Below are positions 7,053-32,214 of a stretch of DNA of 57,534 bases, piece after piece. Made by a program: the position numbers and the translations under genes. Each line of letters begins with the position of its first letter. Position 1 is the first letter of the stretch. The notes under the pieces were generated by a model, which saw only the letters and a list, made by a program, of their open reading frames with translations, made no database searches and was not told the origin of the DNA. Source of the DNA: a virus; the IMG/VR virus record IMGVR_UViG_3300045988_071636, positions 1-57,534 of that record; one strand, given 5' to 3'.

Positions 7053-7183
7053 GCGTGGAACTCATGCGCAGAGCTATCATTGACATGATTCTTTGGACAG
7101 ATGATCCGAAGAAAATGAGACATATTTATGTGCTCCTTGGAACATTGTTGAAGAGGAAGGATGGTGAGCCTTGGTATGAATGA
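7049..7183 (+). CDS. Hypothetical small protein (44 aa)
   Basis: Coupled start ATG 7049 overlapping stop TGA 7050-7052. Ends at TGA 7181-7183, overlapping the Bro-N gene start. Confidence 0.4.
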   Translation: MSVELMRRAIIDMILWTDDPKKMRHIYVLLGTLLKRKDGEPWYE

Positions 7184-7721
7184 ACTCCAAATCTTCAACA
7201 GTGATCAGTTTGGCCGTATCCGTGCCGTAGAGATGGACGGTGAGCCGTGGTTCTGTCTGGCGGATGTGTGTAAGCCGTTGGGGTTACAGACAAAAGATTG
7301 CCGACGCCGCTTGAAAGAAGATGGGGTGGCTACAACCCACCTCACCGATGCAATGGGTAGAGACCAGCAAATGCTCATCATCAATGAGGGCAACCTCTAT
7401 CGGGCAATCTTCCAGAGCAAGAAGCCGGAGGCGGAGCAGTTCACGGATTGGGTAACAGAAGAAGTTCTCCCTGCCCTACGAAAGCATGGTGAGTACAAAA
7501 CACCTGGACGGGCACCAGAGGTATCTCCGAGCGGGCTTGCTAGTCTGATTCGCATTACCCGCCGAACGATGCTGGATGCTGGGAATACGCCGCAGGATGT
7601 TTTGAAGATGGTCAAAGGAATTTTCAGCACATGGAACGTACCAATCCCTGAGCCGTTGAATAATCAACTTCCGGGACAAACAAAACTCATTGGATGGAAC
7701 GCCCCGGCGTTAGAGAGCTAA
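7176..7721 (+). CDS. BRO N-terminal domain protein (antirepressor-like)
   Basis: ATG 7176 within ORF 7161..7721. LQIFNSDQFGRIRAVEMDGEPWFCLADVCKPLGL ... QFTDWVTEEVLPALRKHGEY is the Bro-N signature. Confidence 0.75.
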   Translation: MNELQIFNSDQFGRIRAVEMDGEPWFCLADVCKPLGLQTKDCRRRLKEDGVATTHLTDAMGRDQQMLIINEGNLYRAIFQSKKPEAEQFTDWVTEEVLPALRKHGEYKTPGRAPEVSPSGLASLIRITRRTMLDAGNTPQDVLKMVKGIFSTWNVPIPEPLNNQLPGQTKLIGWNAPALES

Positions 7722-7732
7722 ATAAAATCGAA

Positions 7733-7769
7733 GTCCCCGCTATCTTATATGAGGTGGCGGGGGCTTTTT
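7733..7769 (+). terminator. Intrinsic terminator closing the moron island
   Basis: Stem GTCCCCGC 7733-7740 / GCGGGGGC 7757-7764 followed by TTTTT. Confidence 0.7.
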
Positions 7770-7777
7770 ATATCTTT

Positions 7778-7828
7778 AGTGCCAAGTGCTTCATTGCCAA
7801 GTGCCGTATTTCAGAAGGTGGTGGCACC
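7778..7828 (+). promoter_or_regulatory. Late-leader element B: GTGCC box pair before the tape measure gene
   Basis: AGTGCCAAGTGCT at 7778-7790 and TTGCCAAGTGCC at 7794-7805. GTGCC 7801-7805 is complementary to GGCAC 7823-7827, adjacent to ATG 7829. Confidence 0.5.
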
Positions 7829-10800
7829 ATGGCCGTTGATATTGATAGTCTGCAAATTGAAATAGAGGCAACATCGAGTGATGCGGCGGCGAAAATCGAC
7901 GCATTGGCTACCGCGCTGGCTAGCCTGAAAACAGTGGCAAAGGGCGGAGCGGGGCTTACTACAGTTTCTAATCAGATGCAGGCACTTGCAAATGCGGCAA
8001 AGCTGATAAATAGCAGCAGCCTTAATACAGCAAAGCTAAAGGAAATGACAAGTGCACTTAACGGATTGTCTTTTATTCAGAAGTCCAGCGGCTTGTCCTC
8101 CACAATCAACGCCCTTAAAAAGTTGCCTCAGATTAGCGAATCCTTAGAAAAAGCAGATTTAGGAAAGTTTGCTGTTCAGATGAATCAGGTGGTGGACGCA
8201 ATGCGCCCCCTGGCTACGGAGATGCAGAGAGTTTCCAGTGGGTTCTCAGCTTTCCCGATAAGGATTCAGAAGATCATCCAGAGCAACACTGGACTGGCTG
8301 CTTCGAACAGTAAGGCGGCAAAGAGTTTTGGGGTATTTGGTAATGGCATCACAAGTGCGCTTGCGAAACTTTCCATTTATGGATTTACGATTAAGCAAGT
8401 ATATGGATATGCCAAGTCTTGGGTGACTTCTGCAACGGATTACATAGAGAATGTCAATCTGTTTCAAGTATCTATGGGTGAGTTTTACGATGAAGCGTTT
8501 GCTTACGCAGAACTCCTCAATGATAGGCTTGGTATAGACCCTTCGGAGTGGATGCGGGCACAGGGCGTATTTATGTCCATGACAAACGGTTTCGGCCTTG
8601 CCCGGCAGCAAGCATACGATTTGAGCGAGGGCCTTACCGAACTTGCTTATGACCTTAGCTCACTTTACAACGAAAGCACAGAACAATCCATTCTCCGTTT
8701 GCAATCCGCACTCTCTGGAGAAATCGAGCCTATCCGCCGTCTTGGTATTTCCATCAGTCAGGCAACGCTACAAGAGTATGCTCTAGCCCATGGCATCAAC
8801 GAAAGCGTTGTTTCTATGACGGAACAGGAAAAGGCATTGCTCCGAAGCCTTGTTCTAATGGAAGGCGCGGGCCGTATCGGGGCGATTGGAGATTTTGCCC
8901 GTACTCTTGAAAGCCCCGCTAATGCCATGCGGGTTTTAAGTCAGCAAATCACACAGTTAGGACGAGCACTTGGTACGGTTCTTCTCCCGATCATCGTTCA
9001 AATCATACCTTGGGTACAGGCGTTTGTCGAAGTCCTGACTGACGCTATTAAGACTCTTGCTATTTGGGTTGGATTTACGATGCCGGAATGGGATACAAAC
9101 GACTGGGCAGGTGGCATCGTCAGTGGTGGTGAAGATGCTGAGGATGCTATAAATGGTGTCACTAATGCTACGAAGGAATTAAAAAAAGCGCTTCTTGGCA
9201 TTGACGAGTTGACTATTTTAGAGCCAACAAATGCTGGAGGGGCTGGTGGTACAGGAGGAAACTCAGGATGGGGTAGCGACTTGGAAATCCCTAATATTTG
9301 GGATAAGGATGCAATATCGGGAATCAAAACAAAAGCCGATGAACTTAAAGGCATTTTAGAAGAAATTCTTTATGATTATGTTCTTCCAATCGGCGCTGCG
9401 TTTGCTGCGTGGAAGATATTGGGGTTGCTGAATAATCTCGGAGTCGCAACAAGTCTTGTTTCTGATTTGAAAAAAGCTGTGGCAGGTGGAATTATTGCCT
9501 ATTTAGAATTTAAATTAGTAAAAGGGTCTTTTGATAATTTCCTATCTGCTGATGGATCAATTTGGGATCTCATTAAGGCTGCTTTATATACCGCGATCGG
9601 AAGCGGAATACTTTACTACATGTTTGGCCCGGCTGGGCTTGTGGTTGGTTTAGGTGTAAGTTTAGTAGCATCAATCATTTCATTGGCAACTTCGATATCA
9701 GGTGGACTAGACTATAACGGGTTAAAAGCCAATATAATGAAAGCTATTTCGACTGGTCTTGGTGGGGGAATCGGGTTTGTATTGGGGGGAGCCGCTGGAG
9801 GAACTATTGGGCTTCTAGTTACAGCCGGAATCACATTTACAATAACGAGCATTATGGCGAACCTAAGCGGGCAAGTAGATAGTGGGACGTTAGAAAATGC
9901 AATTAACATTTTACTAGGAGCAATTGCATCCGGTATTTCAGGAGCTGCCATAACAATGCTTTTAGGCATAGCCGGTGGCCCAGTTGGGTTTTTGATAGGG
10001 GCAACAATAAGTTTTGTTGTGCAAGGGGTCTCAATGAATTGGGGCGATATAACTAGCTGGGCAAAAGAGTGGTGGTCAGATTTAACAGCAGAAATAGTAG
10101 GAATATGGGACGACCAAACACTAAGCGTACCAGCAAAAATAACGGCTATTGGGATGGCTATTGTTGGAGGGATTCTATCTGGAATTGTTGATGCAATTGC
10201 AGGGATTGGAACATGGCTTTATAACAACTTGGTTGCGCCTATTATTAACGGAGTAAAAAGTCTTTTAGGAATACACTCACCGTCCACAGTGTTTATGGAA
10301 ATAGGGCAAAACATTATAGAAGGTTTGTTACAGGGGATAAGCGGAACTTGGAGTTCTATTATAAATTTCTTTACAATAGAAATGCCGAAATGGTGGAACA
10401 ACAATATAGCGCCGTGGTTTACCCTTGAAAAATGGAGCGGACTTGTAAGTAGCATTGGAACATCCATTAAAAATGTATGGAATTCTACGGTTGGTCAATG
10501 GATAACGGATATTTCGGCTTGGTGGAACAATAATGTATCTCCATGGTTTACATTAGAAAAATGGACAGGTATTCTTAGCGGAATTTTAGGAGCATTTTCG
10601 TCCGTTTGGGACAATATCACTTCTGGGTTTGATAAATTCAAAAATGTTTTCAGTTCTGGATGGGATACATTTTGGGGCAAAGTTGGAGGAGTTGTGGCTG
10701 GAGCAATTAATGGAGTGATTTCAGCAGTAGAAAACGGTATAAATTGGGTAATAAAGAAACTGAACTCCCTTAGTTTCACTATACCAGATTGGGTCCCATT

Positions 10801-11173
10801 ATTAGGCGGAGAAAGATTTGGCCTAAACATTCCAACTGTAAAGCTGGGAAGAGTAAATTTCGAAATGGGGAGCTATGCGTTTGGCGGTTTCCCAGACCAC
10901 GGCGAAATGTTTATTGCCAGAGAACAAGGCCCTGAGCTAGTGGGCCGTATCGGGAACCGGACAGCGGTAGCAAACAATGATCAGATTGTGGAGGGTGTTG
11001 CTGCTGGTGTGACATCTGCCAACGATGGAGTAATCAATGCTATCTATGCCATGGCCCAGCAAATCATTTCCGCAATTGAAGAGAACAGCGGAGACGTTTA
11101 TCTGGATGGGGATAAGGTCGGAGAACGAGTAACGGAATACCAAAATAGGAAGAATCGCATTTTTGGCAGATAA
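7829..11173 (+). CDS. Tape measure protein
   Basis: 1114 aa from ATG 7829. N-terminal coiled coil, Gly/Ala/Ile-rich hydrophobic core and a duplicated WWNNN(I/V)(A/S)PWFTLEKW(S/T)G motif. Canonical position. Confidence 0.9.
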   Translation: MAVDIDSLQIEIEATSSDAAAKIDALATALASLKTVAKGGAGLTTVSNQMQALANAAKLINSSSLNTAKLKEMTSALNGLSFIQKSSGLSSTINALKKLPQISESLEKADLGKFAVQMNQVVDAMRPLATEMQRVSSGFSAFPIRIQKIIQSNTGLAASNSKAAKSFGVFGNGITSALAKLSIYGFTIKQVYGYAKSWVTSATDYIENVNLFQVSMGEFYDEAFAYAELLNDRLGIDPSEWMRAQGVFMSMTNGFGLARQQAYDLSEGLTELAYDLSSLYNESTEQSILRLQSALSGEIEPIRRLGISISQATLQEYALAHGINESVVSMTEQEKALLRSLVLMEGAGRIGAIGDFARTLESPANAMRVLSQQITQLGRALGTVLLPIIVQIIPWVQAFVEVLTDAIKTLAIWVGFTMPEWDTNDWAGGIVSGGEDAEDAINGVTNATKELKKALLGIDELTILEPTNAGGAGGTGGNSGWGSDLEIPNIWDKDAISGIKTKADELKGILEEILYDYVLPIGAAFAAWKILGLLNNLGVATSLVSDLKKAVAGGIIAYLEFKLVKGSFDNFLSADGSIWDLIKAALYTAIGSGILYYMFGPAGLVVGLGVSLVASIISLATSISGGLDYNGLKANIMKAISTGLGGGIGFVLGGAAGGTIGLLVTAGITFTITSIMANLSGQVDSGTLENAINILLGAIASGISGAAITMLLGIAGGPVGFLIGATISFVVQGVSMNWGDITSWAKEWWSDLTAEIVGIWDDQTLSVPAKITAIGMAIVGGILSGIVDAIAGIGTWLYNNLVAPIINGVKSLLGIHSPSTVFMEIGQNIIEGLLQGISGTWSSIINFFTIEMPKWWNNNIAPWFTLEKWSGLVSSIGTSIKNVWNSTVGQWITDISAWWNNNVSPWFTLEKWTGILSGILGAFSSVWDNITSGFDKFKNVFSSGWDTFWGKVGGVVAGAINGVISAVENGINWVIKKLNSLSFTIPDWVPLLGGERFGLNIPTVKLGRVNFEMGSYAFGGFPDHGEMFIAREQGPELVGRIGNRTAVANNDQIVEGVAAGVTSANDGVINAIYAMAQQIISAIEENSGDVYLDGDKVGERVTEYQNRKNRIFGR

Positions 11174-11193
11174 ATTTTAAATTGGAAGAAAGG

Positions 11194-11568
11194 GTGACAA
11201 TATTGGTTCTTGAAATTGATGGGTTTAATATTGTCCCTTACATTTCATTTGGAGGAGTTAAGTGGCAACGGTCTGACGTGGACGGGGAGGGAGCTGGTCG
11301 TACTTTGGATGGCAAGCTCAGAAGGAATCGGGTGGCAACAAAGCGGCGGCTGGATATTACCTGCCGTCCGCTCAATGCCGCCGAAACAAGTAAAGTCTTA
11401 ACGGCAATTATGCCGGAATGGGTATCGGTTCGATATACAGACCCTCAAACAAACAGCATTGCAACAAGAAAAATGTATTCCAATAACAACCCGGCTACGT
11501 TTCAAATGAAGCAGAGGAACGGAGATGAACTATGGGGAGGGATCACATTCCCACTGATTGAGGAGTAA
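11194..11568 (+). CDS. Small tail protein in the distal-tail (Dit) position
   Basis: ORF 11182 (TTG)..11568. GTG 11194 follows GGAAGAAAGG. First gene after the tape measure gene. Confidence 0.5.
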   Translation: MTILVLEIDGFNIVPYISFGGVKWQRSDVDGEGAGRTLDGKLRRNRVATKRRLDITCRPLNAAETSKVLTAIMPEWVSVRYTDPQTNSIATRKMYSNNNPATFQMKQRNGDELWGGITFPLIEE

Positions 11569-11571
11569 TAT

Positions 11572-12195
11572 ATGCCATACGAGTATCAAGTAGAAATTGG
11601 CGGAATAATGTATGGAATGGATAGCATTAAAAGCGCAAATATAAAGCAGCCGTTATTCGAGTATTTTGGAGCGGGGAATGCAATGCCTGCTGAGTTCCAC
11701 ATTACATTTATTCCTAAAGAGGAACCTCCCAGAATGGCAAAAATTGTACCATTCTGTAGAGAAGAAGGAGAAAAAGATTGGCATAAGCTAGGTATATTTT
11801 TTGTTGATGTAAGGAGTGAAGATAGACAGTGGAAAAATCTCATTGCCTATGACTCCATGCTGAAAACCGAACAAACTTACTTGATTAGTGAAGATGTGGG
11901 TGAATGGCCAAGGGGGATGAAAGCGCTTGTTGCGGATATAGCAAGCCGTATAGATGTAGAAATTGATAGTAGAACAGTTATCAATGAAGGTTATGTGGTT
12001 GAATATCCAAACGATTATACAATGCGAGAAATTTTATGCCATATAGCAGCAGCCCACGCAGGGAATTGGATTATTACGGCGGACGGGAAATTGTTGCTAA
12101 TTCCGCTTTTTACTGCAATGCCTCCAGAGACATATTATTTAATAGAAGACAGCGGAAGTGCCATAGTGTTTGGAGAGGATAGAATTTTGGTATGA
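11572..12195 (+). CDS. Tail/baseplate protein
   Basis: 207-aa ORF with GAGGAG RBS, tightly packed after the Dit-position gene. Confidence 0.55.
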   Translation: MPYEYQVEIGGIMYGMDSIKSANIKQPLFEYFGAGNAMPAEFHITFIPKEEPPRMAKIVPFCREEGEKDWHKLGIFFVDVRSEDRQWKNLIAYDSMLKTEQTYLISEDVGEWPRGMKALVADIASRIDVEIDSRTVINEGYVVEYPNDYTMREILCHIAAAHAGNWIITADGKLLLIPLFTAMPPETYYLIEDSGSAIVFGEDRILV

Positions 12196-13400
12196 ATAAC
12201 AAGTATTATGTAGGCCAAAAAGCATCTTCTTTTTTAAAATATGAAAAAACTCCTCCAGTTAGTAAAATCCGGCTGTTTTGGGATGATGAAAATGCATTCG
12301 AAGCTGGAGATGATACAGGATACACAATAGAATTGTTTTGCCCATCAGCTACACAGAAGATGGCAGATAATATTTTGAATGCAGCAAAAGGATTTGTGTA
12401 TCAAGGATTTTCGGCCCCTGGCTCAAGCCTAGTTCCAGAAGCGGAACTGGGGGATGGAGTAACGGTTGACGGTTTTTACGGAATGATAGCAAATCGGGAT
12501 ATAGAATTTGGCCCAGGGAATTTATCCGACATCTCTGCTCCAGGGGAAAAGGAAATTAACCATGAATATCCTTATTTGAGCTCAGAAAGTAGAGAACTAA
12601 AACGAAAAGTTACACTAGGGACTTCTTACTATGGCACTAAAATTACTCGAAAAAACGGATTAGAAATTACCAAAACAGATAATAGCGGTGCAGAGAAAAG
12701 CCGGGTTATTTTAAACAGCGATATTTTGGCCTTTTATAATGACGATGGACAGGCAGCACTCTATTTTGATGCGGCCAGTGGAAGATACATTTTTCGCGGG
12801 GACATCAACATGCAAGGGGGATCTATTTATTGGGGAGATTCCTTCCCTTACAAGTCCCAGTTTTCAACATCTCCGGATGGACCATGGCATGATAAGCAGC
12901 AAGAAGGAGATAAATACAGACGAGATACATATGATGGGGGAAAAACTTGGGAAGAGCCTTACCAATTTGTCGGAACAGACGGACGAGACGGTATAGACGG
13001 TTCGGATGCAAGTGTTACATTCAACAATGTACTTCGAGCATTACAAAGAGCAGAGGCGACACAAACAACATTTATTACAGCGGATGAGCTAGGGGCTCCC
13101 ACCATTTATGGTGCCAAAATTTATGGTGCAGAGATATATGCTGGCGGTGTAGATGATATGGGTGGACAAATTATTGGGCTCTTGGACACTGGGATGGTGG
13201 TATGGAACGGAGATGGAGAACGAGTATTAACTATTTCTGGAAATGCAGATACTGCGAGCCTTGTCACGGGCTATAACATATTACGATTTAACTGTCCGTA
13301 TATGTCGGTAGAAGCCACATCATCAGTTTCCTTTCATGGACGATTAGTTTCTTTTGATGACGTAAATGAGGTTTCAGGACTTTATCTGAGGTTTTCTTAA
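12192..13400 (+). CDS. Tail/baseplate protein with a short collagen-like run
   Basis: 402 aa with an ATGA overlap. GTDGRDGIDGSDA GXY run. Position in the tail module. Confidence 0.6.
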   Translation: MNNKYYVGQKASSFLKYEKTPPVSKIRLFWDDENAFEAGDDTGYTIELFCPSATQKMADNILNAAKGFVYQGFSAPGSSLVPEAELGDGVTVDGFYGMIANRDIEFGPGNLSDISAPGEKEINHEYPYLSSESRELKRKVTLGTSYYGTKITRKNGLEITKTDNSGAEKSRVILNSDILAFYNDDGQAALYFDAASGRYIFRGDINMQGGSIYWGDSFPYKSQFSTSPDGPWHDKQQEGDKYRRDTYDGGKTWEEPYQFVGTDGRDGIDGSDASVTFNNVLRALQRAEATQTTFITADELGAPTIYGAKIYGAEIYAGGVDDMGGQIIGLLDTGMVVWNGDGERVLTISGNADTASLVTGYNILRFNCPYMSVEATSSVSFHGRLVSFDDVNEVSGLYLRFS

Positions 13401-14548
13401 TGCTCCCTAAAATATATTCAGCGTTTCTCAACTTGACAAATGCATGTAACTTGGCGTGTCGCTATTGTTTTGTGGAACAGCATCCAGATATGATTTCCCT
13501 TCAGGTAGCGAAAGATGCAGCGGATTTTTTGGCCGCCAACGCGGGAGACGGGGTTCCGTCTATCAACTTTTTCGGCGGGGAACCGCTACTGATGTGGGAC
13601 GCTATTATAGTCCCGCTGACCGAGTATGTCCGGGATCGGTATCCAGCATATAACCTTTCTATGACAAGCAATGGAACTCTGCTGAACCAGGAGCGGGCGG
13701 AGTATATGAGGAAGAAAGGAATAGGGCTCTTGCTTTCCATGGACGGAGACAGACGGACTCAGGAGCGCAATCGACCGCTTCAGGATGGCGGCTCCAGTTT
13801 CGACATTCTGGGGAAAAAGCTTCCTTTAATTTTGAAATACTTTCCTGATGTGATGTTCCGATCTACGGTAACACCGGAGACCGCAGTTGACTTGTTTCAC
13901 GATATGATATTTGCAGAACAAGCTGGTTTCCGCACATTTTTTACTATGCCGGATAGTTTTGCAAATTGGGACGGCACTGAGCCACTGGAGGAGGAACTTC
14001 GGCGCTATTCAGAGCATTATGTCGAGTGCTTAGAAAATGGATGGGAACCAATCTACTTCACACAGATTGAAAAGTTTTTCCCCAAAATACTCTTGCACAA
14101 CCAGGCGATCCAAGAGGGGGCAAACCGCGCCTATACCTCATGTATGGCCTGCGGCAAGTGCGGACTGGGTTCTGGGCGCTATGCGGGGATTAACCTGAAT
14201 GGAGATATCCTAGCTTGTCAGGAGTTCTTTTCACGAGGCGATAATCCATTCGTGATTGGAAATATCTATACTGGGGTGGCAGATGAGGCGCGGAGACGAC
14301 TTATGCAGAAATACGATAGCGCACAGGTTGAAGGGGATGGGTGCGATGAATGCCCCCTGAACCGCATCTGTGATGGAGGGTGCGTGGCCAACAACTATAT
14401 TCGATCGGGGAGTTTCCACCATATGCCCCCCATCTGCTGTCGGTGGAACCGTCTGCTATTCCGAGAGGCAATCTATCTAATGGAGCGGCTGGGCAAGGCA
14501 AGAAACAAGCGCTTTTTAGAGAGGTGGCATATCTATGTTGCCAGATGA
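13400..14548 (+). CDS. Radical SAM enzyme with a SPASM/twitch-type C-terminal Cys clusters (anSME / peptide-maturase-like)
   Basis: CNLACRYC (CX3CX2C) at residues 16-23. GGEPLL motif. C-terminal CMACGKCG..ACQEFF..GCDECPLNRICDGGC..ICC. TAATG overlap with the upstream gene. Confidence 0.85.
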   Translation: MLPKIYSAFLNLTNACNLACRYCFVEQHPDMISLQVAKDAADFLAANAGDGVPSINFFGGEPLLMWDAIIVPLTEYVRDRYPAYNLSMTSNGTLLNQERAEYMRKKGIGLLLSMDGDRRTQERNRPLQDGGSSFDILGKKLPLILKYFPDVMFRSTVTPETAVDLFHDMIFAEQAGFRTFFTMPDSFANWDGTEPLEEELRRYSEHYVECLENGWEPIYFTQIEKFFPKILLHNQAIQEGANRAYTSCMACGKCGLGSGRYAGINLNGDILACQEFFSRGDNPFVIGNIYTGVADEARRRLMQKYDSAQVEGDGCDECPLNRICDGGCVANNYIRSGSFHHMPPICCRWNRLLFREAIYLMERLGKARNKRFLERWHIYVAR

Positions 14549-15467
14549 GCTGATCGAAGTACCGGAATACCTGAAGGGGGAACTTACCGGTGCAAACGTC
14601 ATGCCCATGTGCGACTTCTGTACGGAGATTGCCTGTGAGACAGATGGAATGGCCTGTGGTGAGACTTGCAGCCAAGGATGCCACGGGCAATGTACTGTGG
14701 TACAGTGCGGACAGTGTAGCGGCTGCCTGGGTGGATGCCAGATATGCGAATCATCCTGCCAAAATTCCTGTCAGTCCTGTCAGTCATCCTGCGAGTCGGC
14801 AGCGCAAAACCCTACCAGCTATGGTTCCATCACGGTGGGCGAAGTTACCAGCCATACTATTGAAGTAACGCTGAGAGCCATTTCAAAAGCAACATCTTAT
14901 GTGATCGCCTATCGGCCAGACAGCACGACTACTGCCCGAAATGTGGAAACTACGTCGCGAAATTACACGCTAAAAAGCCTCGAGCCTAACCAGAGGTATG
15001 TAATTAACTACTATGGCAAGAACAGCTACGGAACCGGCCCTTATATGCCTTCTCCGGTCTATGCCACCACAAGGCCAGAGATTGTAGTTGAACCGTGGTC
15101 ATGGACATCATCCAATGGGGCAGCGACGGACACACAGACCCGTAACGCCTACCAAATTTTACAGGGTAACCGGGCAGCAGATGACTTCCATCACAATGTA
15201 TGGAACGACTTCATAGACAAGATTGTGGAGATGCGAGAGGCATACGGATTGTTTTGGACGACGGACAGTGGGCGCTTTCCCTCCGCCTCCGGGTGCAAGG
15301 TGTCCGCCGGGGACACACTGACCGCCGAGATTTACAACGCGGCCAAGACCAATATAGGTTCCATACAATCTACCGGGATACAGGATGTAGATCCGGGGGA
15401 CGAGATAACCGGATACCACGTTCTTCACATCTCGGATGTTCTGAATGATATCATTGGAGGTCTGTAA
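14535..15467 (+). CDS. Cys-rich (SCIFF-like) N-terminal module fused to an FN3 domain and a tail-fibre-module C-terminal domain
   Basis: The start overlaps the rSAM stop (ATGTTGCCAGATGA) and has a GAGAGGTGG RBS. 16 Cys lie in residues 26-87, ending in CESSCQNSCQSCQSSCES. An FN3-like region follows (SITVGEVTSHTIEVTL...YVINYYGKNSYG). Confidence 0.8.
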   Translation: MLPDELIEVPEYLKGELTGANVMPMCDFCTEIACETDGMACGETCSQGCHGQCTVVQCGQCSGCLGGCQICESSCQNSCQSCQSSCESAAQNPTSYGSITVGEVTSHTIEVTLRAISKATSYVIAYRPDSTTTARNVETTSRNYTLKSLEPNQRYVINYYGKNSYGTGPYMPSPVYATTRPEIVVEPWSWTSSNGAATDTQTRNAYQILQGNRAADDFHHNVWNDFIDKIVEMREAYGLFWTTDSGRFPSASGCKVSAGDTLTAEIYNAAKTNIGSIQSTGIQDVDPGDEITGYHVLHISDVLNDIIGGL

Positions 15468-15628
15468 TGGATAGTCAAAAAATTATTCAAATGGCTGTAG
15501 CAATTAGAGAAGCAGCCTCTAGGATCACAGTATCTGGGCCAAACAATTGGACACAGTTGCTTGGTATTATCCACACAGCGGAATCTATAGTTACAGAGGC
15601 GGGGAAGGAGGGAGAACATGGCGGATAA
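15467..15628 (+). CDS. Hypothetical small protein (53 aa)
   Basis: TAATG overlap with the upstream stop. Its end overlaps tail fibre start 15618. Below the ORF-track cutoff. Confidence 0.4.
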   Translation: MDSQKIIQMAVAIREAASRITVSGPNNWTQLLGIIHTAESIVTEAGKEGEHGG

Positions 15629-17903
15629 ACGGATTGGGGAATTGCCTCTTATCGAAGACCTTGATGATGAGTCTTTTTTTGTGGCTGAACAACAAGGTGC
15701 AGCAGGACATATTACCGGCGCACAGATAAAGGGATTCGCCCGGAAGTCCGTGGAAGATATTGCAAACGCTTCCCAGAAATCGGCTGAAGCGGCGGCGAAG
15801 AGTGCGTCTGCGGCCCAGGAGAGCGCTACTCAGGCGGAGGAAGCGCAGGAAGCAGCAGAGAGTGCCAAGAGTGGGGCAGAGGTTGCACAAAAAGCGGCGG
15901 AAACGGCACAAGGCGCCGCCGCGGACGCGCAGGCCGGGGCGGAGAGCGCCAAGACGGCAGCGGAGGCAGCGGCGGACGTTGCAGCGAAAGACGCCGCCGA
16001 AGGTGTGCGGGAAGAGCTCTCCGTCTATGTGGAGCAGACTGAGGCAAACGCCCAGGCGGCAGCAGATTCGGCTTCGGAGGCCGCAGTGTCCCAAGAGGCC
16101 GCAGCACAGAGCGCCCAGGGGGCGGCAGGCAGTGCAACCGCGGCGGCGCAGGACGCGGTGGATGCGGCGGATGCCAGGACGGCTGCCGAAGCGGCACAGG
16201 GCAAAGCGGAGGCCGCCCAGGGGGCTGCGGAAGCGGCCAAGAGCGGGGCGGAGACGGCGGCGGGCACGGCCACTACAAAGGCCGAAGAAGCAAGCGAGAG
16301 CGCCGAGACCGCCAAGCAGTACAGCGGAAAACCGCCGAAGCCGCAGAATGGAACCTGGTGGGTATGGAACGCAGAGACCCAGGCGTATACCGATACCGGG
16401 ATTAAGTCTGTTCTCTCCATTGTGAAATCCTATCCCTCTGTGGAGGCTATGGAGGCGGACAAGCTCAATATGCATGAGGGCGACCTGGTTATCATCGCCT
16501 CCACTGTAGATGACCCGGATAACTCCAAGCTCTATGTGCATGATGGCGTTGGCTGGGTGTATCTCTCCGATCTTTCCGGCGTGGAGGGCGTGGGGATTGC
16601 GGGCATCTCTCAGACTGATGGCAACCATGCGCCGGGCACCACGGACACCTACACAATTGAGCTGACCGATGGGAGCTCATACGAGTTCACTGTCTACAAT
16701 GGTGCGGATGGCGACGGAAGCGGAGACATGCAGTCTTCTACATATGACCCACAGGGCAAGGCGCAAGACATCTTCGGATATGCGGACAATGCAGCAAAAG
16801 GCAAGCAAGACAAGCTGAAAGGTACCGCTGGCCAGGTGGTAGGCTTTGACTCCGAAGGCAACGCAATCCCCCAGGCGGCCCCCATCGGATTGCCGGATGG
16901 CGGAACTGTGGGGCAGTTGCTGGAAAAAACGGAGGACGGGGCAGAGTGGGCAGACAAGCCTGTGATGTATGTAAACATAACGCCACCGGCTGGAGATTCC
17001 CCGTTCGGAACGGCTGACCACACGATTGCTGAAATAACGCAAGCAGTCTTGAACGGGGTAACCGTGCTTTCAAAAATATCGGCAGGAACCGATACTAAAG
17101 TAATTCCACTTTCGACTGTAACAGACAGTGTGGCTTCCTTTTCGTCTACGTCTGTAGACTACGGCGGGTCTGTTATCGCCAATATTGTACCCCAAGAACA
17201 GTCCGAAGTGGTTATTATAGCGGAAGATCAATTTAGAGCAAGCCAGATTCTATACGATAAAGAAACGAGTGGCCTTGATTCAGATGATGTGCAAGGCGCA
17301 ATCAAAGAACTGGCTAAGAACAAGCAGGACTCCGCAGATGCTGTAACTGTTTCCGGCGGCGGCACGATGCAGATGGGGGAGAGCTTGGGGGCCGGCCCCT
17401 ACACCATTGAGGTGACCGAGGACGAGGACAGCGACCTCTCCGCCGAACAGGTGGGCTACAATAATGAGGGAACCGGCTTGACGGCGACAAACGTCCAGGA
17501 TGCGGTCACAGAGCTTTTTACGTCTGTCAGTGAGGGCAAAGCTGCCATTGCCGCCGCGATCACTGACAAGGGAGTAGCAACTGCGGCGGACGCCACGTTC
17601 CAGCAGATGGCGGAGAAGATCGGGGAGATTCAGAGTACGCCGGAATATGAACTGGTTGAGGTCTCAACTTCCGGTGCGAATACACAATTTATCACCTTAA
17701 AAGATGGTGCTCTGCTTGCGACATTTGATAGGGATTCCACGGTTCAGATTGTTAAAGGTACGATTTTTACCTTTGCTTACAATATATCATCGCCGTCGAT
17801 AACGGGCGACCTAAAAAACCTGGGCGTGGATACAAGAGGATACCCCATGATAAAAGTAAACGGGGCAGGGAGCATTAAAATAGGAGGAGGGGGAAGTAAC
17901 TGA
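15618..17903 (+). CDS. Tail fibre with a long Ala/Glu/Gln-rich coiled-coil stalk
   Basis: 761 aa with GGGAAGGAGGGAG RBS. Conserved-looking N-terminus MADKRIGELPLIEDLDD. About 190 aa of AAEAAxxA heptad-like repeats at 15780-16330. Globular C-terminal region. Confidence 0.75.
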   Translation: MADKRIGELPLIEDLDDESFFVAEQQGAAGHITGAQIKGFARKSVEDIANASQKSAEAAAKSASAAQESATQAEEAQEAAESAKSGAEVAQKAAETAQGAAADAQAGAESAKTAAEAAADVAAKDAAEGVREELSVYVEQTEANAQAAADSASEAAVSQEAAAQSAQGAAGSATAAAQDAVDAADARTAAEAAQGKAEAAQGAAEAAKSGAETAAGTATTKAEEASESAETAKQYSGKPPKPQNGTWWVWNAETQAYTDTGIKSVLSIVKSYPSVEAMEADKLNMHEGDLVIIASTVDDPDNSKLYVHDGVGWVYLSDLSGVEGVGIAGISQTDGNHAPGTTDTYTIELTDGSSYEFTVYNGADGDGSGDMQSSTYDPQGKAQDIFGYADNAAKGKQDKLKGTAGQVVGFDSEGNAIPQAAPIGLPDGGTVGQLLEKTEDGAEWADKPVMYVNITPPAGDSPFGTADHTIAEITQAVLNGVTVLSKISAGTDTKVIPLSTVTDSVASFSSTSVDYGGSVIANIVPQEQSEVVIIAEDQFRASQILYDKETSGLDSDDVQGAIKELAKNKQDSADAVTVSGGGTMQMGESLGAGPYTIEVTEDEDSDLSAEQVGYNNEGTGLTATNVQDAVTELFTSVSEGKAAIAAAITDKGVATAADATFQQMAEKIGEIQSTPEYELVEVSTSGANTQFITLKDGALLATFDRDSTVQIVKGTIFTFAYNISSPSITGDLKNLGVDTRGYPMIKVNGAGSIKIGGGGSN

Positions 17904-18086
17904 AAATTTGGCCTATGCGCCTAAACTTTTCCTTCAAGCCTGGACGGCGCTTCCAGAGGCTTCCCAGTGCGCCAGCACGAGGAACCGAATCAAATAAGAC
18001 CCGGTATGACAATACGAGAGGAGCATTATCGTGGACGTCATCAACTGGAGCGACCTCACAATTACCATCGAAGGGATGTATTCATA

Positions 18087-19892
18087 ATGGCTGTGATTGT
18101 CAATGGCAAAAAAGTAGCCGGGCTTGGTCAGCCCGGCAAGGACGGAGCTCCCGGGAAAGATGGTGCTCCTGGTAAAGACGGTAAGTCCGCATATCAATCA
18201 GCATTAGATGGTGGCTACATCGGTAGCGAAACCGAATTTGGAAAGGCGCTGGCAGACTCGGCCAATGGGAAAAGCGCGGTCAAGGGCACCTATCCCATCG
18301 CGGCGGGGCAGGTCATCCAGGCAGGCGACGCTGTGGATGTGGTGGAGGGGCAGGTGCAGAAGAGCGCCACGCCGGTGGCAAATGTGGAGACGGTGTTTGA
18401 TAACGGGGCGGCTACTCTTGGTACTTCTGTTCTTCGCCTTTCAGACAATCTAAATGTTGTGTGTTACCTTTATCAAAATGGTTCAACATATTGGCCTTGC
18501 GTCCATTTGATTGATGATACTGGAACAGTGGTTGGACAAACGAATAGGCAAGTCATAGAAAATGTCAATGCTTCCAATATTATGGCCGCCCGCCTGAGCG
18601 ACACGCAGTTCGTGGTGGTGTATTCCGAGGCAGGGAACAACTGGAAATCTCGCGTTGGAACAGTAACTGGAACAAGTATTAGTTTTGGAACGGAATATGC
18701 AATTGCAACAGCGAATGAGGGCGTGGTTATTCCCTTTTCGTCTACATCTGTATTAAGGATTTTCCGTGCAAGTACACTGAAGATTAGCCTCTTAAACGTT
18801 TCTGGTACATCCATCACGGAGCAGAGCCTTGGCTCTTTAGGGATAATGGCGGTTGACCCCTCGGCGGTAAGGTTGCCAGACGATGGACTTGGTGGCAAAC
18901 GAGTCTGTATCTGCTTCCGCGACAATAGTGACGGCAATAAGGGCAAGGCCGTCATCGCCACCATCGACAGCGCCAATCAGGTGACGTGGGGGAGCGTGGT
19001 GACAATCGTTCCTTCGGTCGTCAACGGAATGAGCTGTGTGAGCGTTGGGGCGGTAATATATGTGGTTTTTGATACCACAGTTTATATCCTAAATGACAGT
19101 TTATCGGTTCTTGGACAAGAAAAGTATGATACGAACACGCATAGCGATACTAGGCTCACATTAACCTCGTTTGATAACTTCGCAGTCGGCACATATTTCG
19201 GGAAAAACCATACAGATGCGGCGGTAATCAGGTGGGACGGCGAGAAAGTTTCAATTTCTGAGCCATATTCGTTTTCTCCAGTTGGATATGCAAACTATAT
19301 AAGTACAGCACGCATCTCCAATGACCGGATGATTGTTGCATACCAAAGCGCAGGGAGCGGAAACTACGGTACCACCACCATCCTGACCGTCATGGGCAAC
19401 CAGATCGCGGGCAGCTTTGTGGACGGCAGCCAGGACGCTATCGCCCTCAAGAGCGGCACAGCCGGACAGAGTATCGAGGTCATCTACTCGGGCACCGTGG
19501 CGGCAGATTGGGTGACGGATGGGCAGGTCATCAGCAGCCCCGGCGTGTACGGCGCTGGTGTGCTGGACGGGGTGCTCCAGGTGTGGAGCAAGGATAGGCC
19601 AGATAACGTCGTAACGGGAACGTACATTGGCGATGGTGCTCCTAGCCAAACAATACAATTAGGCTTTACGCCCAAAGCAGTATTGGTTTGCCAAAACGGT
19701 ATACTTAGCCGGGGATACCAAAATCATTACGCCGAAGGGTTGGCGCTTGATGGATATCCAGCCGCAGCGTCCAATAGCAATGTCGTGAGCGTTGTAGAGG
19801 GTGGATTCCAAGTATTTGACGGGACTAGCGCCAATCACAACGGCCGTACCAATGTCGCCAGCCAGAAATATTATTATTTGACTTGGAAATGA
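18087..19892 (+). CDS. Collagen-like tail fibre / receptor-binding protein
   Basis: ATG 18087 within ORF 17967..19892. N-terminus MAVIVNGKKVAGLGQPGKDGAPGKDGAPGKDGKS (GXY repeats) followed by a large beta-rich domain. Confidence 0.7.
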   Translation: MAVIVNGKKVAGLGQPGKDGAPGKDGAPGKDGKSAYQSALDGGYIGSETEFGKALADSANGKSAVKGTYPIAAGQVIQAGDAVDVVEGQVQKSATPVANVETVFDNGAATLGTSVLRLSDNLNVVCYLYQNGSTYWPCVHLIDDTGTVVGQTNRQVIENVNASNIMAARLSDTQFVVVYSEAGNNWKSRVGTVTGTSISFGTEYAIATANEGVVIPFSSTSVLRIFRASTLKISLLNVSGTSITEQSLGSLGIMAVDPSAVRLPDDGLGGKRVCICFRDNSDGNKGKAVIATIDSANQVTWGSVVTIVPSVVNGMSCVSVGAVIYVVFDTTVYILNDSLSVLGQEKYDTNTHSDTRLTLTSFDNFAVGTYFGKNHTDAAVIRWDGEKVSISEPYSFSPVGYANYISTARISNDRMIVAYQSAGSGNYGTTTILTVMGNQIAGSFVDGSQDAIALKSGTAGQSIEVIYSGTVAADWVTDGQVISSPGVYGAGVLDGVLQVWSKDRPDNVVTGTYIGDGAPSQTIQLGFTPKAVLVCQNGILSRGYQNHYAEGLALDGYPAAASNSNVVSVVEGGFQVFDGTSANHNGRTNVASQKYYYLTWK

Positions 19893-19903
19893 GGTGAACT
19901 GAA

Positions 19904-20215
19904 ATGACAATTATCAAAATTAACCCGCTGGAAAGCGGCCAGCATCCGATCCAGAGCCAGAGCCACCGGCGCGCCTGCTGGCTGGAAGACTACATAGAGG
20001 TGCCCGCCCACCTCCATGACGCGGTGTGGGCGACCTATGGCTGGTGTGACCTCCAGATTGAGGAGGGCAGGCTGGTGGGTATCACGCCTACTGAGCGGCC
20101 TCCAGAGCCGGAGCCGGAGCCCCAGCCGCCCTCTGAGGAGGACATCACCTTGGACATGCTGGCCGAGCACGAGGAACGACTTTGTATATTGGAAATCACC
20201 ACCAATGCTGTTTGA
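19904..20215 (+). CDS. Hypothetical protein following the tail fibre
   Basis: 103-aa ORF with GAGGTGAA RBS. PEPEPEPQPP linker. Confidence 0.55.
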   Translation: MTIIKINPLESGQHPIQSQSHRRACWLEDYIEVPAHLHDAVWATYGWCDLQIEEGRLVGITPTERPPEPEPEPQPPSEEDITLDMLAEHEERLCILEITTNAV

Positions 20216-20229
20216 GGAAGGGGAAGAAC

Positions 20230-20379
20230 ATGAACACGGTATTTAATCTCTGCAAGCTGCTTATTGACCGGGGCCGCACCGACGGCCTCCAGGACAAGAT
20301 GGATGTCTATCTCGCCGCCGACCGGCTCACCCCGGAGGAGTACCAGGAGCTGGCCGGGCTACTGGCCCCGGAACAGTAA
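20230..20379 (+). CDS. XkdX-like small protein
   Basis: ATG 20230 within ORF 20182..20379. 49 aa ending ...RLTPEEYQELAGL, like the XkdX-family ITxEEYxEITG motif. Confidence 0.5.
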   Translation: MNTVFNLCKLLIDRGRTDGLQDKMDVYLAADRLTPEEYQELAGLLAPEQ

Positions 20380-20417
20380 TCAACAGCGGGATCGCTGGAT
20401 AAAAGGATGTGAATCAA

Positions 20418-21770: not shown

Positions 21771-21784
21771 TGGAGGTACATATT

Positions 21785-22057
21785 ATGGACATTTCTTCTT
21801 TGGGTATCACCGGAGTAGCGGTTATCACTGTGATCTGCTTCCTGGTCGGCCAGGTGGTTAAGGCTACCGGACTGGACAACAAGTGGATTCCCATTATCTG
21901 CGGCGTGTTCGGCGCGGCGCTGGGTATCCTTGGTATGTTTATCATGCCCGAGTTCCCGGCTTCGGACTATTTGACCGCTGCCGCTGTCGGCATTGTGAGC
22001 GGACTTGCGGCCACTGGTATCAATCAGGTCTATAAGCAGATGACTAAGGAGGGCTGA
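21785..22057 (+). CDS. Holin
   Basis: GGAGG RBS 8 nt before ATG 21785. 90 aa with three hydrophobic segments and a charged C-terminus. Adjacent to the endolysin gene. Confidence 0.65.
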   Translation: MDISSLGITGVAVITVICFLVGQVVKATGLDNKWIPIICGVFGAALGILGMFIMPEFPASDYLTAAAVGIVSGLAATGINQVYKQMTKEG

Positions 22058-31784: not shown

Positions 31785-32127
31785 AACCCTAGATTTTATC
31801 GAAATTGGCACTGACGAAGAGATAATCCAGAAGACGGGCACAGAGCAATACGTGAAGCTGGCAAGCCCGAACACCGCCCTATATGTGAGTTCCGCCACCG
31901 CAAAGTGTATCCCCAACATATTGCCTCGAGTCCTGATCGGCAAGGCCGGAAAGTATCTGCTATTCCATTTCACCGACAGCAAAAAAGGCTTTGCTGTGTC
32001 GAGATATTCCGGCGGGTTTTCGATCCCGATGGCCGGCGTCGTCAGAAAACTCGGGATAAGGCCGGAGCAGGTAAATGGCAAGCGCCCAAAGCTCATCAAA
32101 GATGGCTTTGCAATCGAGCTATATTAA
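31777..32127 (+). CDS. Hypothetical protein
   Basis: Internal ATG 31777 (GGAGGGAACGAAA upstream) of ORF 31603..32127. 116 aa. Confidence 0.55.
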   Translation: MNETLDFIEIGTDEEIIQKTGTEQYVKLASPNTALYVSSATAKCIPNILPRVLIGKAGKYLLFHFTDSKKGFAVSRYSGGFSIPMAGVVRKLGIRPEQVNGKRPKLIKDGFAIELY

Positions 32128-32167
32128 AAAGCGCCGCTCCCCGGTGTGCGAAACCGGAGGGCGGCAA
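32127..32167 (+). repeat. 41-nt direct repeat, copy 1 (hairpin-forming), 5' flank of the pentapeptide gene
   Basis: AAAAGCGCCGCTCCCCGGTGTGCGAAACCGGAGGGCGGCAA is identical to 32870-32910. Confidence 0.9.
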
Positions 32168-32214
32168 GACAAAAGCTATCTGCCCTTATTTTAGGGCTGG
32201 GAGGAGGGAGCAAA

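Follow-up and report, generated by a model that had tools for sequence, protein, structure and literature searches.

A candidate phage cassette pairing a radical SAM/SPASM enzyme with a cysteine-repeat protein encoded among tail genes

The stretch of DNA analyzed here (the window) is the 57,534-nucleotide viral record IMGVR_UViG_3300045988_071636 from IMG/VR. Two overlapping genes were studied, and they lie on the plus strand, as do the two neighbors that adjoin them and every feature mapped within them. A tape measure protein gene (7694–11173) lies upstream of the pair, and the gene immediately preceding it (12192–13400, 402 amino acids) encodes a tail-tip protein that matches phrog_32308 (E 1.6e-16). 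The TAA stop of this tail-tip gene shares 1 nucleotide with the ATG of a gene for a radical SAM/SPASM enzyme (13400–14548; TTCTTAATGCTC), which places the enzyme gene in the late structural operon. The enzyme gene overlaps the next gene (14535–15467, 310 amino acids) by 14 nucleotides (ATGTTGCCAGATGA), with the downstream ATG at 14535 and the enzyme TGA at 14546–14548, and homologous loci exhibit the same overlap. Within the 3′ end of the enzyme gene, a sequence that resembles a Shine-Dalgarno element (GAGAGGTGG, 14519–14527) is located 7 nucleotides before the ATG of the second gene, although its function is only inferred. An initial sequence-only reading had noted both the gene overlap and the location of the pair between tail genes. 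These observations, and all other statements of that reading about the sequence itself, are upheld by our analysis. The genes at 11572–13400 match tail-protein PHROGs and those at 15618–19892 match tail-fibre PHROGs.

Re-reading of the sequence confirmed that the ORF at 13400–14548 encodes 382 amino acids and carries the motif C16-NLA-C20-RY-C23 (13445–13468). This is the CX3CX2C site for the radical SAM [4Fe-4S] cluster, and both this motif and the GGEP sequence are invariant in our alignment A2. The protein scores above the gathering threshold of the radical SAM superfamily profile PF04055 (50.8 bits versus 29.5). Its C-terminal Cys pattern, which had been proposed to represent a SPASM domain, matches TIGR04085 over residues 254–342 with 48.9 bits (cutoff 27). 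The SPASM auxiliary-cluster region (residues 254–347; 14159–14440) includes seven Cys residues that are invariant in an alignment of 22 homologs, arranged as C254, C273, C315-X2-C318-X5-C324-X3-C328, and C347, and in SPASM proteins such a seven-Cys motif binds two auxiliary clusters. Judging from these profile matches and conserved residues, the ORF is an intact radical SAM/SPASM enzyme.

We were unable to assign the enzyme to a curated named maturase family, as no such cutoff was reached in an NCBIfam profile search. The best score was obtained with the PapB family (NF047865; 181.5 bits, E 2.4e-53, cutoff 340). Lower scores resulted with the nif11-type maturase family (139 bits), with ScfB (TIGR03974; 129.9 bits, cutoff 425), and, at fifth place in the list, with QhpD (TIGR03906; 117.7 bits, E 5e-34, cutoff 453). 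The CXXX-repeat maturase model (TIGR04115) yielded 79.1 bits against a cutoff of 350, and the anaerobic sulfatase maturase model (TIGR03942) yielded 73.5 bits against a cutoff of 349. The best matches of this enzyme, whose SPASM domain is complete, are the thioether-forming peptide maturases PapB, nif11-type, ScfB, and QhpD. Firm clustering with families that do not modify peptides would have argued against the original proposal, but these families and the anaerobic sulfatase maturase score lower. Because the enzyme falls below every family cutoff, the chemistry of these families cannot be transferred to it with certainty. Membership in the QhpD family is also not supported by genomic context, which is a phage tail module rather than a qhp operon. 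The closest solved structure is that of CteB (5WGG; E 3.3e-32), and the alignments to ScfB, nif11, QhpD, and CteB begin only at positions 81–100 of those proteins. The cluster motif of the phage enzyme begins at residue 16, and therefore the N-terminal RiPP-recognition domain (RRE) is absent according to both the profile and the structure alignments.

The 310-amino acid protein, which is the proposed substrate, starts with MLPDELIEVPEYLKGELTGANVMPM and is composed of a leader-like segment, a Cys-repeat module, a fibronectin type III (FN3) domain, and a helical C-terminal domain. The leader-like segment (residues 1–25; 14535–14609) had been recognized from its appearance alone, and alignment A1 reveals that it carries a conserved motif, hydrophobic-x-hydrophobic-P-x-x-L (IEVPEYL in this protein). 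The motif is present in 27 of 35 Cys-rich homologs and in 0 of 17 Cys-poor homologs. Note that it is missing in about half of the substrate families, which leaves the mode of substrate recognition unclear.

The reported run of 16 Cys residues is real and occupies residues 26–86 (61 residues; 14610–14792). The Cys residues are spaced mostly as CX2–3C, and the module ends with CESSCQNSCQSCQSSC. Only 1 Cys is found in the remaining 224 residues of the protein, and the enrichment within the module is highly improbable by chance (binomial P ~9e-20) given the mean Cys content of 0.84% in the other proteins of this phage. AlphaFold2 predicts that the module is disordered (pLDDT 30–44). The module had also been likened to SCIFF peptides, and this resemblance holds for composition but does not extend further. 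No NCBIfam family, including SCIFF and the other curated substrate models, matched the whole protein (E up to 0.01) or the module (E up to 10).

As had been surmised, an FN3 domain follows at about residues 99–178 (14829–15068). It is matched by PF00041 over residues 99–170 (29.5 bits versus a cutoff of 25, E 8.8e-7), is modeled by AlphaFold2 with seven strands and pLDDT >90, and retrieves FN3 structures with Foldseek at a probability of 1.0 and likewise in a PDB profile search. The C-terminal domain (residues 185–310; 15087–15464) is predicted to form four helices with a pLDDT of 96 when folded alone, and W188, W190, S193-N194-G195, and V222-W223-N224-D225 are invariant in alignment A1. We found no fold match for this domain in the PDB (all E >4) and no annotated relative, but only a weak match to phrog_37329. 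Attachment to the virion is probably the role of this domain. However, in the absence of a structural or annotated relative, the grounds for placing the protein in the virion are the position of its gene and the analogy with FN3/Ig decoration proteins.

We examined Cys-bearing homologs from about 14 lineages (the type found in the window, P0012, P0015, P0016, P0018, P0024, P0045, P0046, P0050, and L017/L091/L094/L101/L110), and the enzyme gene is directly upstream in every one. In contrast, no enzyme gene was found within 6 kb of Cys-less homologs at ~60 loci. The enzyme gene and the module are gained and lost jointly, in ~14 and ~15 independent lineages. One pair of syntenic phages (L001 and L242) has substrate bodies that are 75% identical, and the difference between them consists of the enzyme gene and the Cys module. 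Viewed from the enzyme, 51 of 58 loci with a homolog at E <1e-50 have an adjacent Cys-repeat ORF. The 47 distinct substrates adjacent to enzyme genes carry 12–100 Cys residues each and are built from the family-wide unit C-[QE]-x-x, wherein CX3C accounts for 56% of the spacings and ~78% of the Cys residues are followed by Gln or Glu. Modules with the alternative unit C-[ST]-x-D (C-x-x-D) pair with a separate enzyme clade, whose members are 38% identical to the window enzyme and 47–55% identical among themselves. Thus the predicted co-occurrence proved to be strict across many independent lineages, with the two elements gained and lost together and their types varying in concert. This co-occurrence and co-variation, along with the gene overlap, support the assignment of the two genes as an enzyme–substrate pair, although this evidence is entirely genomic.

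The family is large, comprising 626 protein clusters at an E cutoff of 1e-30. The window phage infects a gut bacterium, and the phages with this cassette have strictly anaerobic Clostridia as hosts. In the cultured strain Lawsonibacter faecis NSJ-52, a related prophage carries a cassette with an enzyme that is 63% identical to that of the window, and Flavonifractor is likely a cultivable host genus.

At least five large, mutually unrelated bodies carry the module, which is internal in some and C-terminal in others. Module-bearing bodies include Hoc-like head-decoration proteins (E 1e-84), proteins with a stretch that resembles part of a phage amidase family, and proteins with PG_binding_1 or M23 peptidase domains, and some of the related loci may be chromosomal and outside prophages. 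Therefore, the suggestion that the substrate is a tail or receptor-binding protein is consistent with the position of the cassette in the window, but the system as a whole is not restricted to tail or FN3 proteins. A 53-amino acid ORF lies directly 3′ of the substrate gene (15467–15628; weak similarity in alignment A3), and related loci have a small ORF of 53–80 amino acids at this position whether or not the Cys module is present, which indicates that it travels with the body and not with the enzyme. Separately, stand-alone ORFs of 49–133 amino acids with the same C-Q-x-x repeats are present beside related cassettes in L107 and L108. The ORF from L107 weakly matches TIGR04114 and TIGR04117 (15 bits, E ~0.02). 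These are the only matches to any substrate model, and both are below the cutoffs of 20 and 50.

From the observed catalytic motifs, family affinities, gene coupling, co-occurrence, co-variation, and domain layout, we propose that the overlapping late genes constitute an enzyme–substrate cassette in which the SPASM enzyme forms thioether links within the Cys module of a virion protein. We assign this proposal a probability of roughly 60%. The earlier idea that a phage radical SAM enzyme acts on a Cys-rich protein of the tail module is thereby strengthened by the SPASM/maturase affinity and the strict co-occurrence. However, the modification itself, its thioether type, the retention of the leader, and the presence of the protein in virions are all inferred in the absence of chemical or proteomic data. 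We found no description of such a phage system in a full-text literature search.

By this proposal, the enzyme would be synthesized along with tail proteins in the strictly anaerobic cytoplasm of the host and would act on the disordered N-terminal module (residues 26–86) of the protein encoded by the adjoining gene, probably guided by the leader (IEVPEYL), the repeat motif itself, or both. By analogy with PapB, CteB/ScfB, and QhpD, a side-chain hydrogen would be abstracted and the Cys sulfur bonded to a nearby residue at its beta- or gamma-carbon. As the acceptor, we envisage the Gln or Glu that follows almost every Cys, or the Asp of the C-x-x-D variant. The resulting stack of small thioether rings could compact the otherwise flexible Cys-rich segment and render it insensitive to redox conditions and resistant to proteases, and the module would remain joined to the FN3 domain and the helical anchor in the tail-tip or fibre region of the virion. 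One observation that weakens the thioether proposal is that Gln is as common as Glu beside Cys in the modules, and we know of no established role for Gln as a thioether acceptor.

SPASM enzymes catalyze many different reactions, and the enzyme might instead modify the module by sactionine formation (at the alpha-carbon), C–C cross-linking, epimerization, methylation, or conversion of Cys to formylglycine. Such alternatives are left available by the failure to reach any curated family cutoff and by the difference between the unit C-[QE]-x-x and the CX3D repeat of PapB. Nevertheless, we view them as unlikely, because Cys-based thioether formation is the reaction of all the top-scoring families and of the closest enzyme of solved structure, and because the C-x-x-D variant, which is paired with a separate enzyme clade, is reminiscent of the Cys-Xn-Asp thioether motifs known for PapB and QhpC. 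Formylglycine formation is further disfavored by the low score of the sulfatase maturase model and by the lack of a visible C/S-x-P/A-x-R motif in the module. The module could also be an unmodified metal, Fe–S, or disulfide domain, with the enzyme acting elsewhere and the two linked merely by genome mosaicism. Dense CX2–3C arrays can bind metals, and one stand-alone Cys-rich ORF very weakly matches a copper-storage family (E 0.07). However, the strict co-occurrence, the joint gain and loss, the syntenic insertion/deletion pair, the gene overlap, and the matching of enzyme clade to module type make the absence of a direct functional link hard to sustain, and we consider this explanation very improbable.

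Other alternatives concern the fate of the product. The leader and Cys core might represent a true RiPP precursor that is cleaved to yield a free peptide (a bacteriocin, signal, or anti-defence factor), wherein the FN3 and helical parts serve only as a carrier or handle. Although the conserved leader-like motif and the stand-alone C-Q-x-x ORFs, one with weak matches to CXXX-repeat targets, are compatible with this possibility, it appears quite improbable. Neither the window nor those related loci whose gene lists were read have a protease or exporter gene adjacent to the cassette, the module is carried by unrelated large bodies at internal or C-terminal positions in some cases, and the cassette resides within a late tail operon. 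Moreover, Cys-less homologs occupy the same structural-gene position, which implies that the body has a role of its own. We also doubt that the modified protein is absent from virions and serves instead inside or at the surface of the host cell, where its role might be, for instance, to bind the cell wall, to control lysis, or to exclude superinfecting phages. The window and L239 cassettes directly follow Dit/Tal-like tail-tip genes and precede fibre genes, FN3/Ig domains and Hoc-like bodies typically serve to decorate virions, and Cys-less homologs are encoded among structural genes (collagen-like protein and capsid, then large downstream proteins). This doubt is tempered by the cell-wall-related parts (an amidase-like stretch, PG_binding_1, M23 peptidase) on several module-bearing bodies and by the L001 and L244 cassettes, which adjoin lysis or integration genes rather than tail genes.

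A broader reading, to which we attach even odds, is that phages of strictly anaerobic Clostridia, and possibly gut jumbo phages, routinely staple variable-length Cys-repeat cassettes on virion-surface proteins by using a radical SAM enzyme that lacks an RRE. The targets may include tail accessory proteins, Hoc-like decorations, and wall-binding proteins, and the thioether ladders may be an enzymatic, redox-proof substitute for disulfides. If so, these proteins would define a new class of structural proteins with post-translational cross-links, and the enzyme would be a naturally leader-tolerant stapler of whole proteins. Small secreted peptides and a single enzyme subunit (QhpC) are the known targets of radical SAM/SPASM thioether chemistry, and the phage cassette, which recurs in at least dozens of lineages, would be a portable form of this chemistry attached to virion-type proteins. 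If the thioether proposal is correct, an enzyme-installed covalent cross-link would join the short list of virion-hardening strategies and would explain how phages of strict anaerobes attain disulfide-like stability in the reducing, protease-rich gut. A large unnamed family would also gain a function, and natural maturases that act on full-length folded proteins without a recognition domain could be used for protein stapling and engineering.

Among known systems, PapB/PapA (the ranthipeptide freyrasin) shares with the phage cassette the radical SAM and full SPASM architecture and a repetitive substrate, in which PapB forms many small Cys-to-Asp/Glu thioether rings. The phage enzyme differs by its lack of a recognition domain and by a score far below the PapB cutoff, its substrate is a 310-amino acid protein rather than a short peptide, and its repeat is C-[QE]-x-x or C-x-x-D rather than CX3D. 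The RiPP recognition element of PapB comprises residues 1–85, but activity in vitro is retained without it and little is needed beyond a Cys-Xn-Asp/Glu motif (PMC12715619).

The SCIFF core modified by CteB/ScfB has a similar C-x-x-x-C composition that is rich in Gln, Ser, and Thr. In SCIFF, the link connects a Cys with the position that immediately follows the next Cys (Cys32 to Thr37), and by analogy links from Cys(i) to Gln/Glu(i+5) would be in keeping with this register in the module of the phage protein. However, SCIFF is a peptide of ~45 amino acids with six Cys residues, whereas the phage modules have 12–100 and are fused to large proteins, and the phage enzyme lacks the leader-binding domain of CteB because its alignment begins at CteB residue 99. 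The radical SAM/SPASM enzyme QhpD forms thioethers between Cys and Asp/Glu in QhpC, which remains a working subunit rather than being released as a natural product, and QhpD therefore provides a precedent for a SPASM-modified polypeptide that is retained in function. In contrast to QhpC, a small periplasmic subunit of an enzyme that carries three links and loses its leader by cleavage, the system described here is encoded by phages, and its highly repetitive modules vary in length and are joined to virion-type domains.

CXXX-repeat systems (targets TIGR04114/TIGR04117, maturase TIGR04115) likewise have tandem Cys-Xaa-Xaa-Xaa repeats beside a radical SAM/SPASM maturase, and the phage enzyme aligns with this maturase from its very N-terminus without a recognition-domain extension. 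These are small bacterial proteins defined in silico, none of the target models matches the window module, and to our knowledge their chemistry has not been characterized. Functional parallels are found in the autocatalytic cross-links of the HK97 capsid (isopeptide chainmail) and of Gram-positive surface proteins (pilin isopeptide and thioester domains), wherein covalent intramolecular bonds harden extracellular structural proteins when disulfides are unavailable or unreliable. The proposed phage system follows the same functional logic, but HK97 and pilin bonds form spontaneously in folded domains, whereas the phage would employ a dedicated oxygen-sensitive enzyme on a disordered repeat before assembly.

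The window phage makes an intact, thioether-maturase-like enzyme together with a tail-module protein whose disordered Cys-repeat module is genetically inseparable from that enzyme. Both open reading frames (ORFs) proposed in the sequence-only reading are present exactly as described. The first (13400–14548, plus strand) encodes a 382-residue protein in which the radical SAM motif C16-x3-C20-x2-C23 is accompanied by a Pfam Radical_SAM score of 50.8 bits (cutoff 29.5), and the SPASM-type cysteines noticed near its C terminus are accompanied by a match to the SPASM model TIGR04085 of 48.9 bits (cutoff 27), covering residues 254 through 342. Among 22 aligned homologs (46–77% identity), the three cluster cysteines, a GGEP motif, and exactly seven C-terminal cysteines are invariant. 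These seven (C254, C273, C315-x2-C318-x5-C324-x3-C328, and C347) form the canonical SPASM pattern.

The best curated family match for this enzyme is PapB (E 2.4e-53, 181.5 bits), followed by a nif11-type maturase (138.6 bits), the SCIFF maturase ScfB (129.9 bits), QhpD (117.7 bits), and CcpM (100.6 bits). Each of these top-scoring families comprises maturases of Cys-containing peptides. The anaerobic sulfatase maturase model scored only 73.5 bits, and this identity was rejected given the low score and the absence of the target motif. Because none of these family cutoffs is reached, the enzyme represents a separate family, of which 626 protein clusters were recovered at E values up to 1e-30, none of them named. 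Note that these affinities rest on a ranking of curated HMM scores, not on a reference phylogeny with PapB, ScfB, AlbA, and sulfatase maturase.

The closest solved structure is that of the thioether synthase CteB (5WGG, E 3.3e-32). Alignments with the phage enzyme begin at CteB residue 99 and at model positions 81 to 100 for ScfB, nif11, and QhpD, indicating that the N-terminal RiPP recognition element is entirely missing. By analogy, this absence need not block function, because PapB lacking its recognition domain (residues 1–85) still cross-links in vitro, and PapB requires little of its substrate beyond a Cys-Xn-Asp/Glu motif (PMC12715619).

The second ORF (14535–15467, plus strand) encodes the 310-residue substrate protein. 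The expected gene overlap was found, with the enzyme TGA (14546–14548) lying inside a gene whose ATG is at 14535, and GAGAGGTGG is located 7 nt before this ATG. Also as anticipated, cysteines are clustered: 16 are in residues 26 through 86 and one is in the other 224 residues (binomial P ~9e-20, using as background the mean of 0.84% Cys in twelve other proteins of the window phage). In a tandem-repeat scan, the Cys module contained no more than two short arrays, each with 2.2 copies, and thus did not arise by recent repetition at the DNA level. The ORFs at 14301–14690 (minus strand) and 14590–14868 (plus strand) were dismissed as other-frame shadows of the Cys-rich gene.

An AlphaFold2 model built from a 24-sequence alignment has pLDDT values below 50 for residues 1–6 and 13–79, which comprise the leader and Cys module. 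The FN3 domain and C-terminal domain that had been predicted to follow the core are modeled at pLDDT values above 90, as an FN3 sandwich (residues ~99–178) and a four-helix domain (residues 185–310). The C-terminal domain modeled alone reached a pLDDT of 96, and its comparison with PDB folds gave no match (all E >4). Foldseek with the full-length model and a PDB profile search with the alignment of homologs returned FN3 domains only.

We identified 52 homologs of the substrate protein, which share the C-terminal domain (invariant W188, W190, SNG, and VWND) and vary in FN3 copy number and in the presence of the N-terminal leader and Cys module. The proposal that the N terminus is leader-like is supported by the motif hydrophobic-x-hydrophobic-P-x-x-L, present in 27 of 35 Cys-rich homologs versus 0 of 17 Cys-poor ones. 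In loci L062–L078 (e.g., L062 4507–6888), proteins of ~750–790 residues also begin with the conserved helical domain (PWSWT..NG.A...VWNDLVDK). These proteins lack a Cys module and match nothing in Pfam or PHROG, and their neighborhoods contain no radical SAM gene. A tblastn search with the substrate protein against 50,697 GenBank phage records gave no match, which leaves no cultured-phage homolog or proteomics lead to draw on for this protein.

The sequence-only reading had called for a survey of the synteny between the radical SAM gene and the Cys-rich gene. Among 79 loci (75 from IMG/VR by alignment of the body, i.e., the protein without its Cys module, and four from two protein look-ups), a radical SAM ORF lies directly upstream of, and overlaps, every homolog carrying a Cys module. 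Cys-less homologs (~60 loci) have no radical SAM gene within 6 kb, and the enzyme gene is immediately upstream in all of the further Cys-rich homologs (P0016, P0018, P0024, P0045, P0046, and P0050). Two syntenic phages with bodies 75% identical, L001 and L242, share the order holin, ~300-residue protein, body, ~60-residue ORF, ~540-residue protein, ~490-residue protein, and giant protein; the enzyme gene and Cys module are both present in L001 and both absent from L242. The module and enzyme gene behave as one cassette.

Starting from the enzyme instead, we surveyed 58 viral or genomic loci with a homolog at E <1e-50 and found an adjoining, usually overlapping, Cys-repeat ORF in 51. The seven exceptions include two contig ends, two short modules (5–6 Cys), and one locus (L115) whose module is in the upstream gene. 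The 47 distinct substrates have runs of 12 to 100 cysteines, spaced mostly as CX3C (56%) or CX2C (23%). Because Gln (512) or Glu (395) follows ~78% of the ~1180 cysteines, the module unit can be written as C-[QE]-x-x. The bodies attached to these modules are mutually unrelated, and include the FN3 and helical domain type seen in the window, Hoc-like head decoration proteins (phrog_10993, E 1e-84 and 3e-92), proteins of 600–790 residues with a stretch resembling part of a phage amidase family, and proteins of 929–1800 residues with PG_binding_1, or Big_2 and an M23 peptidase. The module is internal in one body family, starting near residue 140, and is often C-terminal beside distant enzyme homologs.

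Phage enzymes only 24–29% identical to that of the window also adjoin proteins with repeat modules of 8–104 Cys, and some of these contigs are from jumbo phages. On jumbo-phage contigs of 200–290 kb (L146–L152, L125–L145), two or three paralogous radical SAM/SPASM genes are clustered beside proteins of 270–440 residues; in the two loci inspected in detail (L125 and L158), these proteins end in C-Q-x-x Cys runs. The best enzyme homolog in GenBank phages, from the cultured-source Phage Phass-1 (L241; OQ749652, 68353–69378), is 32% identical and is annotated as hypothetical; its neighbors are unannotated. This phage belongs to a genetic code 15 clade, which we take to be TAG-recoding.

Stand-alone ORFs of 49–133 residues consisting almost entirely of C-Q-x-x repeats were observed in Ezakiella-type prophages (L107 3135–3536; L108 3811–3960 and 3975–4214), ~2–3 kb upstream of an enzyme gene that has a fused substrate directly downstream. 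The same enzyme may use these ORF products as free-peptide substrates. In bacterial loci from Clostridium tepidiprofundi and Vallitalea (L176 7193–9982 and L171 7240–10296), the enzyme adjoins proteins of 929 and 1018 residues. These proteins have 100 and 69 Cys, respectively, in repeat modules, and carry either PG_binding_1 or the combination of Big_2 and an M23 peptidase. Because the neighboring genes do not look phage-like (they encode YARHG-domain proteins, a sigma-70 family factor, and SAM synthetase), wall-associated proteins of bacteria, for example at the cell wall or spore surface, may be a further use of the cassette.

Three homologs of the window body (L238, L239, and L240) carry a different module, C-[ST]-x-D, with Asp at +3 for 11 of 13 cysteines in L238. 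The enzymes encoded upstream of these bodies belong to a clade of their own, with 38% identity to that of the window and 47–55% to one another. Judged from sequence, a motif switch paired with an enzyme-clade switch on the same body is what an enzyme–substrate pair predicts. The thioether motif of QhpC is also Cys-Xn-Asp, and the Cys-x-x-Asp module is close to it. The module is similarly close to the Cys-Xn-Asp thioether motif of PapB (PMC12715619).

The window represents a circularly permuted siphophage genome encoding a large terminase subunit, portal protein, major head protein, major tail protein, tape measure protein (7694–11173), and endolysin. As originally proposed, the gene pair lies between baseplate and tail-fiber genes: tail-tip genes (11182–13400) precede the cassette and two fiber-like genes follow it. 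The enzyme ATG shares one base with the TAA of the upstream tail gene, and a promoter and terminator scan around the cassette gave only background-level signals. The gene overlaps place the tail gene, enzyme gene, and substrate gene in one late operon. GC content rises near the cassette (tail-tip genes 0.40–0.41, radical SAM gene 0.49, substrate gene 0.52, fiber gene 0.57), and the step between 11572–14000 and 14000–18000 suggests a recombination boundary close by.

The second fiber-like protein (17967–19892) has a collagen-like G-x-y stretch near its N terminus, GKDGAPGKDGAPGKDGKS. In L001, L003, and L245, too, the cassette or its Cys-less counterpart has collagen-like proteins as neighbors. 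An anti-repressor (Ant)-like ORF (7161–7721) directly precedes and overlaps the called tape measure start. Because the PHROG tape-measure match begins at residue 48, translation probably begins instead at an internal Met, residue 46 (MAVDIDSL). Other features are an HNH endonuclease gene (2062–2760) between head and tail genes, two tRNA genes (Ile-GAT, 51763–51837; Met-CAT, 53409–53482) between the large terminase and portal genes, and a perfect-register 15-nt tandem repeat at 32276–32504 (15.3 copies, consensus GTGCCGACCTGCGCG, 86% matches). The repeat lies inside overlapping ORFs 31905–32588 and 32146–32871 plus one minus-strand ORF, and in one frame encodes the five-residue repeat CAVPT.

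The lysis cassette (endolysin/holin, 20113–22043) shares 89.5% identity with its counterpart in Flavonifractor phage Chenonceau (ON453904), and GenBank phages offer almost no match elsewhere in the first 25 kb; this cassette looks like a mosaic module and provides a host clue. Enzyme homologs occur in genomes of Lawsonibacter, Oscillospiraceae, Ca. Scatomorpha, Ezakiella, Peptoniphilus, and other Clostridia. One of them, at locus L159, lies in a prophage of the cultured strain Lawsonibacter faecis NSJ-52 (NZ_JACOPQ010000005.1) and shares 63% identity with the window enzyme. Together, these findings point to a strictly anaerobic gut Clostridium-class host, which fits an oxygen-sensitive enzyme.

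We infer, without chemistry data, that the enzyme would join Cys sulfurs to side-chain carbons of neighboring Gln or Glu (or Asp) residues, perhaps guided by the leader, the repeat itself, or both, to give a putative ladder of small rings. Candidate acceptors would be the Gln or Glu at +1, +5, or −3 from each Cys. In the SCIFF peptide CteA, the link reportedly runs from a Cys to the position immediately following the next Cys (i to i+5), a register that by analogy would fit C-Q-x-x-C-Q. To our knowledge, Gln has no precedent as a thioether acceptor. The Cys module presumably remains on the protein, and the product could be a compact, reductant- and protease-resistant virion appendage; in the absence of proteomics, its virion location is inferred only from gene position and domain type.

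Full-text literature searches turned up no account of a radical SAM enzyme of a phage coupled to a virion protein rich in Cys, although subscription journals were mostly not covered and an earlier report is not excluded. Neither a study of a cyanophage 'antibiotic synthesis' radical SAM gene nor one of the Clostridia pangenome proved relevant. Seven Cys modules scanned against NCBIfam at E up to 10 matched no substrate family significantly. Among curated substrate models, the closest in concept is the CXXX-repeat radical SAM target (TIGR04114/04117), which was defined in silico and is touched only by the stand-alone L107 ORF (E ~0.02). The SCIFF/ranthipeptide resemblance originally assigned to the core is one of composition only and is not supported by any substrate-family model. 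Given the missed cutoffs, absent recognition domain, and silent substrate models, the phage system is a member of none of the PapB/PapA, ScfB/SCIFF, or QhpD/QhpC systems. Nevertheless, it is inferred to work like PapB/PapA and ScfB/SCIFF, and especially like QhpD/QhpC, wherein the thioethers are kept in the functional protein.
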